Of a stretch of 64,000 nt of DNA, positions 26,928-49,697 are shown piece after piece. The DNA comes from a virus (lineage: Duplodnaviria; Heunggongvirae; Uroviricota; Caudoviricetes). The position numbers and the translations under genes are program-made. The DNA is taken from the IMG/VR virus record IMGVR_UViG_2724679293_000007, positions 32,001-96,000 of that record; one strand, 5' to 3'. The first letter of the stretch is position 1, and each line of letters starts with the position of its first letter. The notes below the pieces were generated by a model, which worked only from the letters and a program-made list of their open reading frames with translations, ran no database searches and was not told the DNA's origin.

Positions 26928-27104
26928 ATTTTTTTAGCTTCATATGCTACATTAACTTGCTTGCGTGCTAATGCATTTTCGGTTTATCCTAAACAGGCAT
27001 CTTAGTAAAACGGATGCCGGGATTGGAACCCCGGATAATGCAAAAGGCGACACAGACGCCAAAAGCGTCTTTTTTTGTGTCATGCCATCGCACAGCCATA
27101 CGTA

Positions 27105-27200
27105 GCACATAGCTCCGAGATCAATGGTAGTGCTGGCTGGGCTGCCGAAAGGCAGGCCGGTTCCCTTTTGCGCCGGTAGTTCCAACCCAGTCAGTGCTAC
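27105..27200 (+). ncRNA. Candidate c4-type antisense RNA region (boundaries approximate)
   Basis: agttccaacc at about 27180 is complementary to two gattggaacc targets (27022 and 27210), the latter just 5' of the icd Shine-Dalgarno. Confidence 0.3.
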
Positions 27201-27261
27201 CGCCATTGAGATTGGAACCTCACGCGGTAGCTCCTTAAATTAGCAAAAGGAGGCTGCCATT

Positions 27262-30658: not shown

Positions 30659-30781
30659 TACAATCGTTGCGGGTGCTTGAGGCTATCTGCTTCAGGCATG
30701 ACCCGAAAAGCAGATAGAAGAAAGCCCCAGATAACATTACGCGTCCTGCAAGACGCTTAACATTAATCTGAGGCCATATCT

Positions 30782-30988
30782 ATGCTTAGCATACGTAGAT
30801 TAGCCTCTTACCGACCAAAAGGTCAAGGAGAAGCAGGCTATGAAGCAGCAAAAAGCGATGTTAATCGCTCTGATCGTCATCTGTTTAACCGTCATTGTGA
30901 CGGCACTGGTAACGAGGAAAGACCTCTGCGAGGTACGAATCCGAACCGGCCAGACGGAGGTCACTGTCTTCACAGCCTACGAATCTGA
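30782..30988 (+). CDS. mok-like overlapping reading frame of the hok locus
   Basis: ORF overlapping the hok-like gene in another frame and ending 7 bp before its stop, as in hok/mok loci. Confidence 0.4.
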   Translation: MLSIRRLASYRPKGQGEAGYEAAKSDVNRSDRHLFNRHCDGTGNEERPLRGTNPNRPDGGHCLHSLRI

Positions 30989-31349: not shown

Positions 31350-32420
31350 TTATTGGAATAACTTACTGATTACATTAAAAACATTAAGGGCGTTACTTGC
31401 CACACTAGACATCTTGGCTGAATTTTTTTCGATTGAGTCAAGAACACTTTCGACTTCCGATAAAGTTCTTCTGCTATCTGCATCTTTTCCTGAGTCTATC
31501 GCATCTTTAATTGCAGATATAGCAGACTCTAAATTCTCCTTAAACTCACCTGTCGTCTCATCCTTCAAGAGAAGTTCTAACTCTTGTTTAAGTTTTTCCA
31601 ATGATGCTCTTTTCTCATCAGTTTTACTAATCTTCCCTGAATAACTGACACAAACACATTCTCTTTTATTGCAGACAGGACAACCATTTAGATAATAACT
31701 TTCAAACGCCTCGCCAAGATCATCATCTTTAAAAATAATCCCCCATAAAGAAAACAACCAAGCATATATATCAGCACACTCTTCATGAAGATTTTCTTTG
31801 TTGTAATTTTTATCTTCAATTGATTTAGCATAAGCCTCTTGCAACTCACCCAACTCTTCGAATAACCTGGATGAATGATAAAACCCACCAAAAGTAGACC
31901 AAATGGTTCTATTCGACGGATAGATATCATTAATCATTCGTGGCGCATAAGGCGGAAATTGCATAGGTTTAATAGCGTTATATTTATTGAAAAGCTCATC
32001 TTTAATTCCTTTTGCGCTTCTTATTTTCTCTGGCTTTCTGTGTGTTTGAGAACAGGAACAAGGCGCCCCTAAGCAATAAGGACAGCAACTAGGGAATTTT
32101 TTATAAAATGCTTCCTGTGGTTGTATTTCAAGTTTATCACAGATTGCAAAAAGCCAAGACAATGCTTCTATATAGGTATTTTTTAATAATTCTTTATCCT
32201 GATTACCATCACGAATAAACTCACGTGTTAAATAAGCTGTTTTCCTTGTCAGATAAGAGTACATATACTCAAATGATTTTTCTTCATTTTTTTTGCTGTA
32301 AATACCTACAATAATATTGCTCATATCATTGATACGTAACATGACATTCCTCTTAAATAAGCCAATACTTCCTAGAACCATATATGCTTCGACAAAGATT
32401 AACGGACATCTTGCCTTCAC
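31350..32420 (-). CDS. Tandem MazG/HisE-like all-alpha NTP-pyrophosphohydrolase-like protein with two Cys clusters (about 330-356 aa)
   Basis: Repeat 2 has EELGELQEAYAKS...EECADIYAWLFSLW then CPVCNKRECVCV; repeat 1 is analogous with CCPYCLGAPCSCS; strongly AT-rich. Confidence 0.5.
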   Translation of the reverse strand: MKARCPLIFVEAYMVLGSIGLFKRNVMLRINDMSNIIVGIYSKKNEEKSFEYMYSYLTRKTAYLTREFIRDGNQDKELLKNTYIEALSWLFAICDKLEIQPQEAFYKKFPSCCPYCLGAPCSCSQTHRKPEKIRSAKGIKDELFNKYNAIKPMQFPPYAPRMINDIYPSNRTIWSTFGGFYHSSRLFEELGELQEAYAKSIEDKNYNKENLHEECADIYAWLFSLWGIIFKDDDLGEAFESYYLNGCPVCNKRECVCVSYSGKISKTDEKRASLEKLKQELELLLKDETTGEFKENLESAISAIKDAIDSGKDADSRRTLSEVESVLDSIEKNSAKMSSVASNALNVFNVISKLFQ

Positions 32421-44537: not shown

Positions 44538-45435
44538 GCACTGGAAAAACATTACTATTTATAAACTTTCTCGTGAGGCGGATCTGACCGACTTAGAAGA
44601 TAAAAAGAAAATGATCCTTTTCACGCCATGCGGTAGTCAGGATATGGCCAAGTTCGGTTTTGTATCGCCATTTGGTGATAATTCCGAAGTTATCGCTATG
44701 CATGGAAATGGTTTTATCCTTGTTGAAGCAAAGCGCGAAACAAAAATTCTTCCCCCGCCGGTTATCCAGCGAGCTATTCAAGAAAAAATTGAAAAACTTG
44801 AGCAAGAACAAGCGCGTAAACTGAAGAAAACAGAGAAGGACTCCCTGAAAGACGAAGTTCTGCATTCTCTTCTTCCACGGGCTTTTTCAAAGTTTTCTGT
44901 TATCCAGGCGATCTACGACGGTTCAACTAAACGTATCTATATCAATGCCAGCGCGCGGCAGGCAGAAGATATGCTCGCGCTTATGCGTAAGTCTCTGGGT
45001 TCTCTTCCTGTTGTTCCCCTGAGTGTTGAAAATCCCATTGAATTAACGCTGACCGACTGGGTACGTGATGGTAGTGCTCCACAGGGATTTCAAATGGGGG
45101 ATGCGGCAGAACTTAAGGCAGTGCTTGAGGATGGCGGTATTGCCCGAGTGAAAAAGCAGGATTTGGGAAGCGATGAAATTTCCACACACCTGGAAGCTGG
45201 CAAGCTCGTCACTAAGTTGGCACTCGACTGGCAGAACCGCATTAAATTTACACTGGACCATAACTTCAGCCTTACCAGCGTCAAATTTGCGGATGAATTG
45301 CTTGAGCAGAACTCTGATATTGATAGTGAAGATGTTGCGCAGCGACTGGACGCAGATTTCTTCCTGTTGACCAGTGAAATTTCGTGCCTGGTTGATGCTC
45401 TGGTAAATGCCCTTGGTGGAGAGGCTAAGCAGTGA
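44530..45435 (+). CDS. RdgC-like recombination-associated protein (start refined to [13 protein letters not shown])
   Basis: Strong similarity to RdgC along its length ([45 protein letters not shown]). Confidence 0.85.
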
Positions 45436-47450
45436 AAGAGCTGTGCTATGGATCTGTTTGCAGTGGAATTGAAGCCGCGAGTATTGCCTGGGAACCGTTG
45501 GGTATGCGTCCGGCGTGGTTTGCTGAAATCGAGCCTTTTCCATCTGCCGTTCTTGCGCACCGCTGGCCCCATGTCGCCAACCTTGGCGACATGACAAAAC
45601 TTGCCAAAAAAGTCCTGGCTGGGGAAATCGAATCCCCTGATGTGCTCGTCGGGGGAACACCTTGTCAGGCATTCAGTATCGCGGGATTAGGTGGTGGGCT
45701 TGATGATGAGCGTGGCGCGCTAACTTTAAAGTATGTGGAGCTTGCAAATGCAATTGACGACAAACGGGCTGAGTCATTTCTCAAACCAGCAGTTATCGTC
45801 TGGGAAAATGTCCCAGGAGTCTTGTCATCGGCAGATAACGCCTTCGGATGTTTCCTTGCCGGATTGGCTGGAGAAGATGCGCCATTCGAACCAGGTGATC
45901 GACCTGAATCAGGAAAAAGTAACGCGTTCTGGCGGTGGGATGTCAAAACCGGTTGCCATGCTCCAAAGTGGCCGCAGTGTGGTTGTATTTATGGACCGCA
46001 GCGAAAAGTGGCCTGGAGAATCCTTGATGCCCAATACTTCGGAGTGGCACAACGACGCCGACGCGTGTTTGTTGTCGCAAGTGCTCGAACAGACCTCGAT
46101 CCCGCAACGGTACTTTTTGAGTTCGAAGGCGTGCGCCGGAATATTGCGCCGAGCAGAGGCGAGGGGAAGGAAACTACCAGATATACTTCAAACATCGCTA
46201 TCAGAACTTGCGATGATACAAACATAATTGCCATGGCACATGGGCAAGGAGGGGCTGAGATAAAAACCGATAATTCGGCACCAACTTTGACATGTAACCA
46301 TGAAGCACCAATTGTATTGCTCGGCGACGGTAGAATGCGCCGTCTTACCCCTGTCGAATGTGAAAGGCTGCAAGGTTTTCCTGATGGACATACATTGATC
46401 CCTACGGAAAAGCGTAAAAAAGTTTCTTCAGATGAACTGGCATACCTTCGCAAAAACTATCCTGATTTGAGCGAAGAAGAGGCCGCGATGCTTGCAGCTG
46501 ACGGACCGCGTTACAAAGCGATCGGCAATAGTATGGCGATACCAGTAATGCGCTGGATTGGCGATCGGATTACCAAGGCTGCATGTCGGCAGAATGAAGG
46601 GAATGAAACAAAAGAGCGAAAAGTTAAACCAGCGGCAGAATTCGAACGGTCCATATTCAAATGGGCTGGTGGAAAATTTGGTGTTCTGGAACAAATCTTT
46701 CGCTATTTGCCAGAAGGGAAGCGCCTGATTGAACCTTTTGTCGGTGGCGGAGCTGTCTTCATGAATGCCGGATACAAGGAAAATCTGCTAAATGATGTGA
46801 ATGCTGACCTGATTAACTTTTACAAGACTTTGCAACGTGAGGAACGTTCACTTATCACTCTGGCGCATCGGTTTTTCCAGGACTACAACACACAGGAAGG
46901 ATACCTGGCAGTACGGAATGCGTTTAACAAACAAGTCTATGATGATTTACATCGCGCAGCGGCGTTTTTGTTCCTGAACCGACATTGTTTTAACGGATTG
47001 ACGCGTTACAACCAGGCCGGTGAGTTCAATGTCGGTTATGGGAAGTATAAAACTCCGTATTTCCCATTGCAGGAGATGGAAGCCTTCCTTGGTGCGGAAG
47101 GGCGTTCTGAGTTTGTATGTGGTGATTTTGCTGCGGTGATTGAAGCTGCCGGAGAAGGAGATGTCATTTTTTGCGATCCGCCATATGAACCGCTTCCAAA
47201 TACAGAGGGATTCACGAACTATTCCGGTCATGACTTTAAGTTTGAAGAGCAAAAACGCCTGGTGTCTCTGTTGACGGATGCTCATCGCCGAGGTGCAAAG
47301 GTTCTCATTACTAACAGTGGCGCGCCAAACATCAGAGAGCTTTATCATGACAATGGCTTCAGAGTGGAACCTCTTTTTGCCAGACGTTCTGTGTCTTGTA
47401 AGGGGGACACTCGAGGTGTTGCTCATGACGTTTTAGGTATATTGCTCTAA
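45432..47450 (+). CDS. dmt: Bifunctional DNA methyltransferase: N-terminal C5-cytosine MTase plus C-terminal Dam-like N6-adenine MTase
   Basis: C5 motifs [28 protein letters not shown]; Dam-like [35 protein letters not shown] and DPPY. Confidence 0.85.
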
Positions 47451-47457
47451 TAAATTT
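47441..47457 (+). promoter_or_regulatory. C1 operator (perfect consensus) with overlapping inverted partner
   Basis: attgctctaataaattt; continues as the palindrome ctaataaatttattag, giving a second imperfect operator on the - strand. Confidence 0.7.
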
Positions 47458-47631
47458 ATTAGTGTAATATCGCCTCAATGAATCGTGATTTATAGAGCGA
47501 TTTAGCTGTTAGCCGCGACAGGCGCGGCGGTAAGCATGGCTGGGCCTAGTCCTCCCAGACAAACCACCGAGTTGCCAGGTTGACCATGCGCCTAAGTGGC
47601 AACGCCGAAGTGCGTTACGAGCTTCCAGTTT

Positions 47632-47657
47632 GCCCATCTTCGGGTGGGCGTTTTTTT
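47632..47657 (+). terminator. Rho-independent terminator
   Basis: gcccatc-ttcg-ggtgggc stem-loop followed by TTTTTTT. Confidence 0.6.
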
Positions 47658-47835
47658 CAGGGTTTTCGTCATGGTTAGCGACTTTGCGGCGGTTTAGAAA
47701 CTGACCATTAAAGTAAATGCAAACGATAATCTGATGATGGTAGCGGCCTAAGAAGCCAGACGCCACGGGGTATGAGTCGTCCCCCGTCAAAAAATCGACC
47801 ACAGAGTGTCCCCGTCTGTGTATTAGGGAACGGGG

Positions 47836-48415
47836 AGGCACAACAGGTAAGGGCATTCTCCCTTATGGGGCTTGGCTTAAATGCATCGAGTGCTCTTACC
47901 GTTGTGATGAAGTGCAGCTCTTTGAAGCAACCAGAAGATAAGCATCTGGCTTCACAACATAAACCGCAGGAACGACCAATAAACGGTAGTCCGTATGGAG
48001 AACACCCCGTTGAGGAAGAGGCCTGGCCGGAACCGTAACCGGCACTACAACGTTGAGAACATTGGCGTAACGGGGTCATATCCCAATCTATGAATAAATG
48101 TCGCGAGGCAGCGTGACAACCAGTGTTCTCAACATTGTGGTGAATGCACAGGCTGATGTGCCGCAACTACAGTAGTGCGCGCTTTGCGGGGCTTGCTACA
48201 ACCCTGTGTCGGAGTTCAGCACCGACCATCACAGTTTGATTCTCTGGCATGAGCATAACGCTGAAATAAGTCCAGTCTGGTGCGGTCTGATCACCCGCCG
48301 TTAGCTCCACGAAACGGAGCACGTAACAGGTAAGAGCATTCTCCTGTAACGGGTTCATATCCCAATCTACAGGTCCACCAAGAATGCTCTTTCCGTTGCG
48401 GTGAATGCGGCTAAG
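47836..48415 (+). repeat. Three related hairpin repeat units in a non-coding region (about 47836..47912, 48048..48152, 48326..48412)
   Basis: Shared ggtaagRgcattctcc / gtaacgggKtcatatcccaatcta / gttgYgRtgaaKgc segments; each unit has an 11-13-bp stem; ORFs here are not protein-like. Confidence 0.5.
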
Positions 48416-48549
48416 CGCACGCGGGGAAATGGTTATATCTGTCCATTATTTCTCCTTGTTTCCCCGTCCACGGTAGATAACCAGCCAAAGGATACCGGGA
48501 GGCACCCGGCACCGCAGCTTTTTTATTCGTTAAATAATGGAGTGAGAGG

Positions 48550-48786
48550 ATGCAGAACAATCCGAACAAATGTCGAACGCTATGGGTGCGGTTATATATT
48601 TATGCCGTCCTCTGTTTGATTGTGTCACTGGTTCTGTATGTTTGGCTTTTGCCAAATATGATCTCATCTAACAGCACAATACTTGTATTGTTGGGAGTCC
48701 TTCTCGCGCTCATTTACCCGGCTTTCGCAGTAGTCTTTTTTCGTGAAAAAACCAGGAAATTAATTAATGAAAAAAACGTTGATTAG
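48550..48786 (+). CDS. Small membrane protein (78 aa)
   Basis: Two hydrophobic helices; precedes the lipoprotein gene. Confidence 0.45.
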   Translation: MQNNPNKCRTLWVRLYIYAVLCLIVSLVLYVWLLPNMISSNSTILVLLGVLLALIYPAFAVVFFREKTRKLINEKNVD

Positions 48787-49594
48787 TGCAGCGATTATTT
48801 TGGGTTCTTTATGTCTGACCGGATGCGATCGGGTAGAGCCAGGTAACGTAGGGATCAAAGTAAATAAGCTGGGGGATGATAAAGGTATCGGTGAAGTAGT
48901 TGGCGTTGGTCGCTACTGGACAGGCTTGAATACTGAAGTTTATATCTTCCCGACCTTTAAGCAAATGAAGACATACGATGAGCCGTTCAGCTTCCAGATG
49001 AGCGACGGAACAACCATTGGTTACCACATCGGCGTAGCCTACAAGGTTGATCCAGCAAAAGTCACAACGGTATTTCAGACCTATCGCAAAGGTGTAGATG
49101 ATATTACTGATACCGATCTACGCCAGAAGGTTGCAGATGCTCTGAACCGGTTAGCCAGCAAAATGACCACCGACAAATTTATCGACGGTGGCAAATCTGA
49201 ATTGCTTGATGCAGCCCTTAAAGACATTCAGGAAGAAATGACGCCAATCGGCATTCAGGTGATGAGCCTCTCTTATGTAGGTAAGCCAGAATACCCGCCA
49301 ACAGTTATTGACAGTATTAACGCCAAAGTCACGGCAAACCAAAAAACCCTGCAACGCGAGCAAGAGGTCAAACAACGTGAAGCAGAGGCCAACATGCTGC
49401 GCGCGGAAGCTGCCGGACAGGCTGATGCTATTCGCACAAAAGCCCAGGCCGAAGCTGATGCCATTCGTTTACGTGGTGAAGCTCTGCGCCAGAACCCCGG
49501 TGTTATGGAGTTGGAAGCGATCAACAAATGGAACGGTACATTACCGCAGTATATGACCAGTAATACCGCTGTTCCGTTTGTTCCGGTGAAATAA
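48767..49594 (+). CDS. plp: SPFH/band-7 (prohibitin-like) lipoprotein (275 aa)
   Basis: Lipobox LCLTGC; SPFH-like core; C-terminal coiled coil. Confidence 0.65.
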   Translation: MKKTLISAAIILGSLCLTGCDRVEPGNVGIKVNKLGDDKGIGEVVGVGRYWTGLNTEVYIFPTFKQMKTYDEPFSFQMSDGTTIGYHIGVAYKVDPAKVTTVFQTYRKGVDDITDTDLRQKVADALNRLASKMTTDKFIDGGKSELLDAALKDIQEEMTPIGIQVMSLSYVGKPEYPPTVIDSINAKVTANQKTLQREQEVKQREAEANMLRAEAAGQADAIRTKAQAEADAIRLRGEALRQNPGVMELEAINKWNGTLPQYMTSNTAVPFVPVK

Positions 49595-49621: not shown

Positions 49622-49697
49622 GGCCCTTTAGCTCAGTGGTTAGAGCTGGCGACTCATAATCGCACGGTCACCGGTTCAAGTCCGGTAGGGGCCACCA
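49622..49697 (+). tRNA. tRNA with CAU anticodon, tRNA-Ile2 (lysidine)-like, with encoded CCA
   Basis: 76-nt cloverleaf; anticodon loop CUCAUAA; G1-C72 pair; T-arm GGTTCAAGTCC; near-identical to E. coli ileX as recalled. Confidence 0.9.

Follow-up and report, generated by a model that had tools for sequence, protein, structure and literature searches.

Transfer-messenger RNA (tmRNA, SsrA) is nearly universal in bacteria, and several phages depend on it. In alpha- and beta-proteobacteria and cyanobacteria, circularly permuted genes yield a two-piece tmRNA, in which two base-paired RNAs from one gene, joined via acceptor and P2 helices, form the working molecule. Mycobacteriophage DS6A encodes a partial tmRNA that lacks the coding sequence and is reported to inhibit host tmRNA (PMC11915505). 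Prophage anti-small RNAs (anti-sRNAs) or sponges such as AgvB and AsxR, and sRNAs with a 5′ seed, provide examples of pairing with host non-coding RNA. Here we describe a locus at positions 47441-48540 of a 64,000-nucleotide (nt) stretch of phage DNA (the window: positions 32,001 to 96,000 of IMG/VR record IMGVR_UViG_2724679293_000007), which belongs to a P1-type phage-plasmid. The locus is predicted to encode a ~175-nt RNA of two halves (47661-47835), a 46-nt 5′ domain antisense to host tmRNA and a 3′ message domain with a tag frame of the tmRNA type.

With tmRNA (RF00023) this RNA shares a GCA resume codon, an A-rich linker with U at -5 and A at -4, a 10-codon tag of the form AN(D/E)...AA, a stop-in-loop helix and downstream H-type pseudoknots. 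It differs in having neither the tRNA-like domain nor pseudoknot 1 (PK1), in scoring below Rfam gathering thresholds, in its antisense 5′ domain and in its position within tRNA/sRNA arrays. Like two-piece tmRNA, the proposed complex would consist of two base-paired RNAs; the partner, however, would be the intact tmRNA of the host, hypothetically paired via its message region. DS6A offers a mirror image among phage-encoded partial tmRNAs, since its RNA keeps the tRNA-like domain and has no tag, the reverse of the arrangement here. The resemblance to AgvB, AsxR and 5′-seed sRNAs lies in a phage RNA predicted to pair with a host non-coding RNA through a 5′ seed, placed right after the promoter in two lineages; the differences are the target, tmRNA, the far longer complementarity (~38 base pairs, bp) and the fused replacement message domain. 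We know of no phage RNA that pairs with tmRNA or that carries a tag template without the tRNA part, and the literature searched, which did not extend to the original P1 genome paper, yielded no description of a tmRNA-directed or tag-only phage RNA.

The locus as a whole has a described counterpart in the control region of the P1 ban operon (Op72/Oban, Pban, 'dicF-like region', trnA/trnT), with which it shares ~98% identity, the operator and the promoters; the window copy is without a 439-bp tRNA-Asn/tRNA-Thr cassette. The original prediction had read 47441-48540 as a non-coding RNA region holding a family of structured RNAs or a novel repeat array under repressor control. Our results support a non-coding RNA region on the plus strand, with related units, covarying stems and a C1-controlled promoter upstream. 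The array is not novel, its units being present in P1 itself and in many other phages, and the hairpins on which that reading centred appear accessory to a tmRNA-like/anti-tmRNA module at 47661-47835 that it had overlooked and that explains the locus best. We favour, with a confidence a little above even, an account in which 47441-48540 is the transcribed non-coding leader of a C1-repressed ban operon, carrying an anti-tmRNA and message module that would dock on host tmRNA, together with clamp hairpins. Such a leader would be an assembly of RNA cassettes common to enterobacterial phages.

The message domain and its tag frame

ARAGORN, Rfam covariance models, a motif scan, BLAST and RNAduplex were used across the window and related loci. 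The lead was a weak Rfam match to permuted tmRNA (tmRNA_permuted, with 25.3 bits for the window and a maximum of 33.5 bits among relatives; gathering score 47), which drew attention to 47718-47750. The module around this match comprises the following features:

47661-47706, plus strand: putative anti-tmRNA domain (RNAduplex against E. coli tmRNA nt 57-105)
47707-47717, plus strand: A-rich linker of 11 nt leading to the resume codon; position -5 is U (47713) and position -4 is A (47714); host equivalent AAAAAAUAGUC
47718-47750, plus strand: tmRNA-type tag frame, GCA AAC GAT AAT CTG ATG ATG GTA GCG GCC TAA = ANDNLMMVAA*
47751-47835, plus strand: stop-in-loop helix, then two H-type pseudoknots (covariance model)
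Pseudoknot PKa, plus strand: stem 1, 47764-47769 with 47781-47786; stem 2, 47775-47778 with 47795-47798 (covariation)
Pseudoknot PKb, plus strand: stem 1, 47799-47804 with 47814-47819; stem 2, 47808-47813 with 47830-47835 (variant table)

At its head the frame has a resume codon in place of a start codon, and before the stop it encodes a hydrophobic, Ala-rich C terminus. Its peptide, ANDNLMMVAA, may be compared with ANDENYALAA, the SsrA tag of E. coli. More than 120 related loci were collected from viral contigs by a tag-module motif spanning the first two codons, and the 10-codon frame ends at the same place in 125/125 of them. Among distinct aligned modules the tag frame stops at codon 11 in 73/73, with the other two frames varying, and a covariance-model search of related loci found it kept in 143/143. 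A second set, retrieved with no constraint on the tag, has 10 codons and a stop in every full-length match, following the pattern AN(D/E/S)x...(A/V)A. This retrieval yielded the tag ANDNYALAAA as well as Vi1-like phages with frames of the type GCT AAT GAT AAC ACG TTC CTG GCA GVA GCT TAA, synonymous in the first two codons. Entropy at codon positions 1, 2 and 3 is 0.67, 0.52 and 1.09 bits (44 distinct open reading frames (ORFs), 27 peptides). All four codons are in use for the last Ala; synonymous changes occur in codons 1, 2 and 10, and conservative replacements are also seen. Judged by these substitutions, the tag frame is conserved as a coding frame, under peptide-level constraint. Canonical translation was rejected as its source: a TAG situated in frame 8 codons upstream is invariant, no in-frame ATG, GTG or TTG is present, and an ATG in a neighbouring frame gives ORFs of variable length.

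The sequence ahead of the resume codon also follows the host pattern. In host tmRNA the frame is determined by U85 and A86, with A86 as the main determinant; the spacer between PK1 and the resume codon is 11 nt in the native molecule, and both PK1 and the coding sequence tolerate replacement (PMC2481249). The corresponding determinants are found at -5/-4 as UAAAU before GCA in the window and as UAAUC before GCU in phage Marshall.

A covariance model built from 13 copies of the module matches the window at 47678-47839 (73.3 bits, E 1.9e-12), and model searches give a single module in each locus, in the orientation of the nearby tRNA genes. In the alignment, 90.9% of paired cells can pair, compared with 79.4% in shuffled controls, both-sided changes occur in 17/25 pairs, and 0/500 shuffles reach the observed values. 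PKa stem 2 covaries although it lies outside the model, and both stems of PKb occur in many compensatory versions. Two downstream pseudoknots thus covary and PK1 is absent, a statement about their position and not about homology to PK2 or PK3 of tmRNA.

No tRNA-like domain accompanies the message domain. ARAGORN made no tmRNA call, either in the window or in any of the related loci that were scanned, Rfam tmRNA models align to the tag region only, compact loci included, and duplex searches with the 5′ domain against 1.2-kb flanks gave no consistent partner strand. We considered CCCGCCGTTAGCTCCACGA at 48293-48311 as a tRNA-Ala or tmRNA 3′ end and rejected it, as it belongs to a local hairpin, covaries with the 3′ strand of that hairpin and lacks any conserved partner farther away. 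In phages MK54 and mistaenkt, near-consensus sigma-70 promoters (TTGACA-17-TAGATT and TTGACA-17-TATAGT) end 7-8 nt before a conserved (A)GUUUUCG; with the promoter abutting this motif, the RNA would start there and leave no space for an acceptor strand. Because the module fails the defining test of a tRNA-like domain, it is not a tmRNA. The domain at 47718-47835 looks like a phage version of the message half of tmRNA, from which it is clearly derived.

BLAST located the module in 775 of 50,697 deposited phage records, P1 included, mainly under Salmonella (272), Escherichia (229), Klebsiella (112) and Erwinia (53) phages. The groups that carry it are P1-like phages, Felixounavirus and relatives, Ackermannviridae, G7C-like Schitoviridae and ~46-kb siphoviruses. 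It usually lies in or beside tRNA clusters, on the same strand, and the records listed annotate it as nothing or as a hypothetical protein. The tmRNA database pipeline depends on ARAGORN and Rfam matches and rejects truncated forms, which would account for the RNA having been missed. Related arrays are in places flanked by int-alpA RNA (43.7 bits; locus L022, 264-330) and SIB RNA (98.6 bits; locus L013, 1709-1862). In a single case (locus L140, 6331-6479, minus strand), a divergent module with the tag ANDNYALAAA and a TGA stop lies ~100 nt upstream of an ORF that by eye resembles a Phd/YefM-type antitoxin. RelE- or YoeB-type toxins create stalled ribosomes, which are the rescue targets of tmRNA.

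Complementarity to host tmRNA and a proposed docking model

We compared the 5′ domain with E. coli ssrA as found in MG1655, whose identity Rfam confirmed. RNAduplex predicts 38 bp in 7 helices between 47661-47706 and tmRNA nt 57-105 (-46.3 kcal/mol), an energy reached by 0/200 shuffles. The target begins with the 3′ half of PK1 and takes in the A-rich linker, then A86 to C91, where the resume codon lies, and the greater part of codons 2-6. Predicted helices include GGUUUUCGUC with GACGAAAACU (nt 96-105, codons 3-6), GCGACU with AGUCGC (nt 86-91, from A86 through the -1 triplet into the resume codon) and UUGCGGC with GCCGCAA (nt 74-80, the 3′ strand of PK1). When complementarity to ssrA was followed along the entire locus in a sliding scan, 47661-47706 alone stood out. 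The loop of a downstream hairpin (unit 2, 48056-48095) has marginal complementarity to ssrA nt 7-57 (z = -3.3, 1 of 72 windows), possibly a chance match.

The complementarity exceeds chance and keeps its position across variants. For 73 variants the median duplex energy is -44.1, compared with -31.1 ± 2.8 for dinucleotide-shuffled ssrA, and 68/73 beat all shuffles. The target site starts at nt 50-59 in 65/73 variants and ends at nt 100-109 in 63. The reverse complement of ssrA nt 60-109 is the best alignment for 72/73, with a median antisense score of 27; the sense, reversed and complement controls reach 13-16. We rejected the idea that the 5′ domain is a sense homologue of the D-loop analogue and P2a of tmRNA, given a sense median of 15, far below the antisense median. 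The target segment is identical in E. coli and Klebsiella pneumoniae ssrA, and Salmonella has one extra A; the registers against this shared host segment differ between phage lineages. Pairing of the 5′ domains with the phage's own message region is weak (-20.4).

In Erwinia phage phiEa2809 (locus L004, 2522-2530 and 2739-2747), the 5′ domain has GUUCUCGUCG in place of the E. coli-type GUUUUCGUC, which predicts GAG instead of GAA (Glu) in the Erwinia SsrA tag. The same phage carries a 9-nt complement of its own 5′ domain inside the loop of the next hairpin.

The RNA very probably acts on host tmRNA. From these comparisons and the modelled pairing, we infer that it would dock on host tmRNA and then either swap in its own tag template or block that of the host. 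In the proposed course of events, inactivation of C1 would lead to synthesis of the RNA, which would anneal to SsrA, unfold PK1 and mask A86 and the resume codon of the host. The phage strand would leave the duplex near host nt 57, and its 11-nt linker would lead to its own GCA, placing the phage resume codon at about the native distance from a duplex helix that stands in for PK1. Host Ala-tmRNA/SmpB would then enter the stalled ribosome, translation would resume on the phage frame, and the phage tag would be appended. The 11-nt linker, U-5/A-4 and the replaceable nature of PK1 and the coding sequence make a geometry that suits such a template swap. Extended to the phages that carry the module, including P1, Felixounavirus-like, Vi1-like and G7C-like phages and Drexler-type siphoviruses, the proposal would be that they reprogram ribosome rescue in trans, with a host-phage two-piece tmRNA that appends a phage-chosen tag. 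We put this forward tentatively, as a possibility that falls somewhat short of even.

A simpler function would be that pairing only blocks the resume codon or brings about an RNase III cut, with the 3′ half recruiting protein partners or persisting as an untranslated leftover. The antisense complementarity is indeed the best-supported functional feature of the RNA, and a long duplex is a plausible RNase III substrate. The partial tmRNA of DS6A, which consists of the tRNA-like part only, is likewise reported to inhibit host tmRNA (PMC11915505). Against such a purely antisense role stand the fixed length of the tag frame, its third-position variation, the synonymous changes in codons 1, 2 and 10 and the conservative replacements, which together point to peptide-level selection and so favour a swap over plain blocking. 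The retention of U-5/A-4 and of the linker length across at least five phage groups would also be unexpected of an untranslated leftover. We regard blocking alone as rather unlikely.

Several points weigh against the docking and swap model. The duplex energies come from RNAduplex, which ignores the intramolecular structure of both RNAs, and the covariation counts for four of the five helices come from an alignment fitted to the model. In the window and in P1 the module lies right behind a strong terminator, and no promoter of its own was detected there, so that its synthesis depends on read-through or processing. A ~40-bp duplex between the two RNAs might just block tmRNA or trigger cleavage by RNase III, and the swap would rely on a ribosome threading a message located on a second RNA molecule. 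The phage tags still resemble degrons, which makes the benefit of a tag swap less obvious. Every functional step of the mechanism is one that we infer, RNase III processing at the clamp stems purely so.

If the docking model is true, it would represent a new viral route to take over translational quality control and a natural tmRNA with its two functions divided between molecules encoded by two genomes; expression of a single small RNA should then alter the tag on rescued proteins. Should its effect be limited to blocking tmRNA, the RNA would still be a widespread means by which phages counter ribosome rescue. A real template swap would be a categorically new mechanism; otherwise, tmRNA-derived and antisense RNAs are kinds already known.

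Clamp hairpins, STnc100-like units and the missing tRNA cassette

Downstream of the module, the array consists of hairpin units, here called clamps, that alternate with multi-branched units resembling the Rfam family STnc100:

47838-47906, plus strand: hairpin unit 1, clamp stem CACAAC-A-GGTAAGGGCATTC / GAGTGCTCTTACC-GTTGTG; 47838-47854 is the repeat of the cassette loss
47907-48042, plus strand: spacer unit, weakly characterised, starting like the STnc100-like units and ending in GTAACCGGCAC, which by eye resembles a tRNA-Thr 3′ end (locus L002)
48043-48142, plus strand: hairpin unit 2, 23-nt arms, 87% complementary; loop with a degenerate T-arm-like GGGGTCATATCCC
48137-48238, plus strand: STnc100-like unit 1, GTGGTGAATGCACAGGCTGATGTGC ... 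CAGCACCGACCATCAC (motif scan and order in related arrays; undetected by Rfam)
48300-48327, plus strand: small conserved hairpin, GTTAGCTCC-ACGAAAC-GGAGC(ACG)TAAC, resembling a tRNA-Ala or tmRNA 3′ end, yet local
48322-48400, plus strand: hairpin unit 3, 14-nt arms, 93% complementary; outer helix CGTAAC/GTTGCG
48395-48527, plus strand: STnc100/PasD-like unit, closed by GUUGCGGUG/CACCGCAGC, then a U-run

The three related hairpin units that the original prediction had noticed are borne out: they share blocks of 24-29 nt at 75-96% identity, have stems of 19-24 bp and give fold z scores of -2.7, -4.85 and -4.98 (units 1, 2 and 3) against dinucleotide shuffles. The spacer unit holds a direct repeat, D5. 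Among the motif-collected loci, the hairpin family numbers 103 distinct units of the form CACAAC-A-GGTAAGRGCATT / loop of 21-172 nt / AGTGCTCTTWCC-GTTGTG. Inner helices exchange GC for TA, AT for GC and CG for TA, and the outer helix, which was unused in selection, is paired in 84%, compared with 68% (maximum 74%) when partners are permuted. Compensatory variants fit within hairpins and not across them, and pairing of a 3′ stem strand with the 5′ strand of the next unit was rejected on this ground. The loops fall into ~51 unrelated clusters, with a T-arm-like motif in 14 units. Unrelated loops in conserved stems mark the stems as clamps around exchangeable cargo. The loop of unit 1 also occurs directly after the tag module in Klebsiella phage MK54, and after the tag module in a Felixounavirus-like phage, where the stem sequence is different.

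The last unit resembles STnc100, a prophage sRNA related to PasD (bioRxiv 10.64898/2026.05.13.724894). Over model positions 31-147 it matches Rfam STnc100 (RF02076) at 33 bits (E 4.5e-5), short of the gathering score of 47. Shared features are the closing helix, the internal hairpins and a terminal CCGGG-AGGCA-CCCGG hairpin; in contrast to the stand-alone prophage genes, the unit sits in a longer array, the 3′ end of which is likely marked by the U-run. The small hairpin at 48300-48327 covaries (GCTCC/GGAGC, GCCAC/GTGGC, TGTCC/GGAC(T)) around an invariant loop, with no consistent distant partner. Identity of the hairpins with Y-RNA (YrlA) was not upheld, since neither the window region (E <= 10) nor five related loci (E <= 0.1) gave a Y-RNA match, in a library whose Y-RNA models are unconfirmed.

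As RNA, the clamp stems (~19 bp) would insulate the folding of each cassette and offer double-stranded processing sites in a polycistronic precursor. Clamp hairpins are probably such folding insulators and processing sites, which is the least supported part of our account, and those bearing a T-arm might be processing signals for RNase P or RNase Z. In P1 the hairpin after tRNA-Thr (locus L001, 3340-3420; also L011, L029 and L037) combines a good T-arm, GAGGGTTCGAATCCCTAC, with a small hairpin in a tRNA-like shape with a 12-bp 'acceptor'. It was rejected as the tRNA-like domain of a tmRNA, having only insignificant matches (mascRNA, 14.9 bits; tRNA-Sec, 14.6 bits). One cargo loop (L057 at ~7962, minus strand, L096 and L123) holds a hammerhead-like core, GCGCGC-CUGACGAG-UCC..GGGA-CGAAAC-GC..GC-GUC-GCGCG; Rfam makes no hammerhead call at gathering score in L057.

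The original prediction had found no tRNA here apart from the one at 49622, and ARAGORN and Rfam agree: 47441-48540 holds no tRNA by ARAGORN, whose sole find is tRNA-Met(CAT) at 49622-49697, and no Rfam family at gathering score. It also placed tRNA genes at the equivalent position in P1, which has tRNA-Asn and tRNA-Thr at the junction. The absence is true of the window yet represents a secondary loss. Compared with AP026755 and P1, the window is without 439 bp holding these two genes (L002, 2898-3353), a cassette present in every close relative listed. The flanks of the deletion overlap by a 17-bp direct repeat, CACAACAGGTAAGGGCA, at 47838-47854, which is the 5′ strand of a hairpin stem. In searches of 72,556 plasmids, 20,395 E. 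coli replicons and 50,697 phage records, none of the top matches listed holds the junction in one piece, and it is rare for that reason. On the evidence of the repeat and these comparisons, recombination between stem repeats appears to have produced the tRNA-less junction as a rare deletion; an artefact of assembly or editing is less likely. Among relatives, tRNA genes have been gained and lost at this spot, and the clamp-stem repeats illustrate how. As DNA, the stems would be recombination points at which cassettes are shuffled, with one event having removed the tRNA-Asn/Thr cassette.

Whether the main action of the hairpins is on DNA, as inverted-repeat recombination sites or cassette shufflers resembling miniature inverted-repeat transposable elements (MITEs), bears on this loss, which took place exactly between two 17-bp stem repeats; an identical loop cassette in unrelated phages fits the same idea. 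The frequent G-T/T-G pairs in the stems are A-C mismatches on the other strand, however, so they fit plus-strand RNA only. The units are also always oriented as the tRNAs are, and their interiors are hypervariable, unlike those of MITEs. We consider a mainly DNA-level function quite improbable, and it would be compatible with an additional RNA role.

Equally, the hairpins, T-arm-like loops and tag module might be non-functional remnants of a phage tRNA/tmRNA cluster. The degenerate T-arm-like loops in units 2 and 3, remnants resembling tRNA 3′ ends, a tRNA-Ala-like AGCTCCA string and the turnover of tRNA genes at this spot would all fit decay. Decay does not account for stems kept by compensatory changes, for a tag frame intact in every copy, for the presence of the module in 775 phage records from unrelated families or for an antisense domain that fits the host rather than the phage's own sequence, and we hold this explanation to be highly improbable.

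The claim that the region holds no credible ORF is probably right, though it contradicts the P1 record, in which the minus-strand genes plp (69472-69849) and upl (69850-70041) run across this stretch (47889-48358 in the window). Minus-strand coding of Plp and Upl, with the RNA structures incidental, would be consistent with this reference annotation, with the existence of PHROG families and with an intact upl ORF in 22 relatives. The two genes lie antisense over hairpin and STnc100-like units, and in P1 the antisense overlap of plp extends to tRNA-Thr; in the window the deletion alters the plp ORF (152 amino acids). Neither ORF has a Pfam match, and their PHROGs are of unknown function only. 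All 4 variable columns in upl fall at codon positions 1-2. With no Pfam match, the antisense overlap with tRNA-Thr, this distribution of changes and stem G-U pairs that fit the plus strand only, we judge plp and upl of P1 to be, probably, spurious ORF calls that have since spread into PHROG families of unknown function. Minus-strand protein coding accordingly ranks among the least probable readings of the region.

Operator, terminated element and neighbouring genes

Two further features precede the module:

47441-47468, no strand assigned: bivalent C1 operator Oban (Op72a/b), overlapped by the P1ban/P2ban promoters (~47425-47470)
47513-47657, plus strand: sRNA-like element with an intrinsic terminator (terminator scan), overlapping the 'dicF-like region' of P1

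The perfect, extended C1 operator of the original prediction coincides with the operator annotated in P1. Measured against the 17-bp asymmetric C1 consensus, ATTGCTCTAATAAATTT, 47441-47457 matches at 17/17 positions and an overlapping reverse-strand site, 47452-47468, at 15/17. The sequence at 47436-47472 is identical to P1, where the block is annotated as the bivalent operator Obanab (Obana/Obanb in NC_005856; formerly Op72) controlling ban. The strong terminator noted earlier was recovered by the scan as a stem at 47631-47650 and a T-run. The ~170-nt transcript that these signals had been thought to delimit matches the annotated 'dicF-like region', although the Rfam DicF model does not recognise it.

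Neither the P1-type copy nor a lambdoid copy of this element matches Rfam DicF (RF00039), and no match occurs in 47300-48700 at E <= 10. Membership in the DicF family was therefore rejected, the label stemming solely from the P1 annotation. The fold of the element is no better than that of shuffles (z = -0.2). Positions 47513-47607 are ~76% identical to an immunity-region segment of lambdoid and Stx phages (L131, 1501-1596, phage cdtI, downstream of cI), with a compensatory change from CTGGG/CCCAG to CGGGG/CCCCG between the two. The 'dicF-like' core and its lambdoid relative may form an undescribed phage sRNA family.

The stretch 47441-48540 is 100% identical to E. coli plasmid pO165_PV01-97_1 (AP026755, IncY). 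The RNA locus is flanked 5′ by dmt (45432-47450) and 3′ by a small membrane-protein gene (48550-48786, phrog_1130), which is followed by an SPFH/Band-7 lipoprotein gene, the tRNA with anticodon CAT and the ban helicase gene. The small membrane protein and the SPFH/Band-7 lipoprotein (48550-49594), the latter annotated as 'serine protease' in AP026755, stand 3′ of the array in place of tciA/tciB/tciC, by which the window differs from P1. Elsewhere in the window, Rfam matches at gathering score lie at 11111-11309, 26997-27075, 27120-27207 and 30671-30845 and belong to IS009, isrK, C4 antisense RNA and a sok-like antitoxin RNA, of which C4 is the known immunity antisense RNA of P1.

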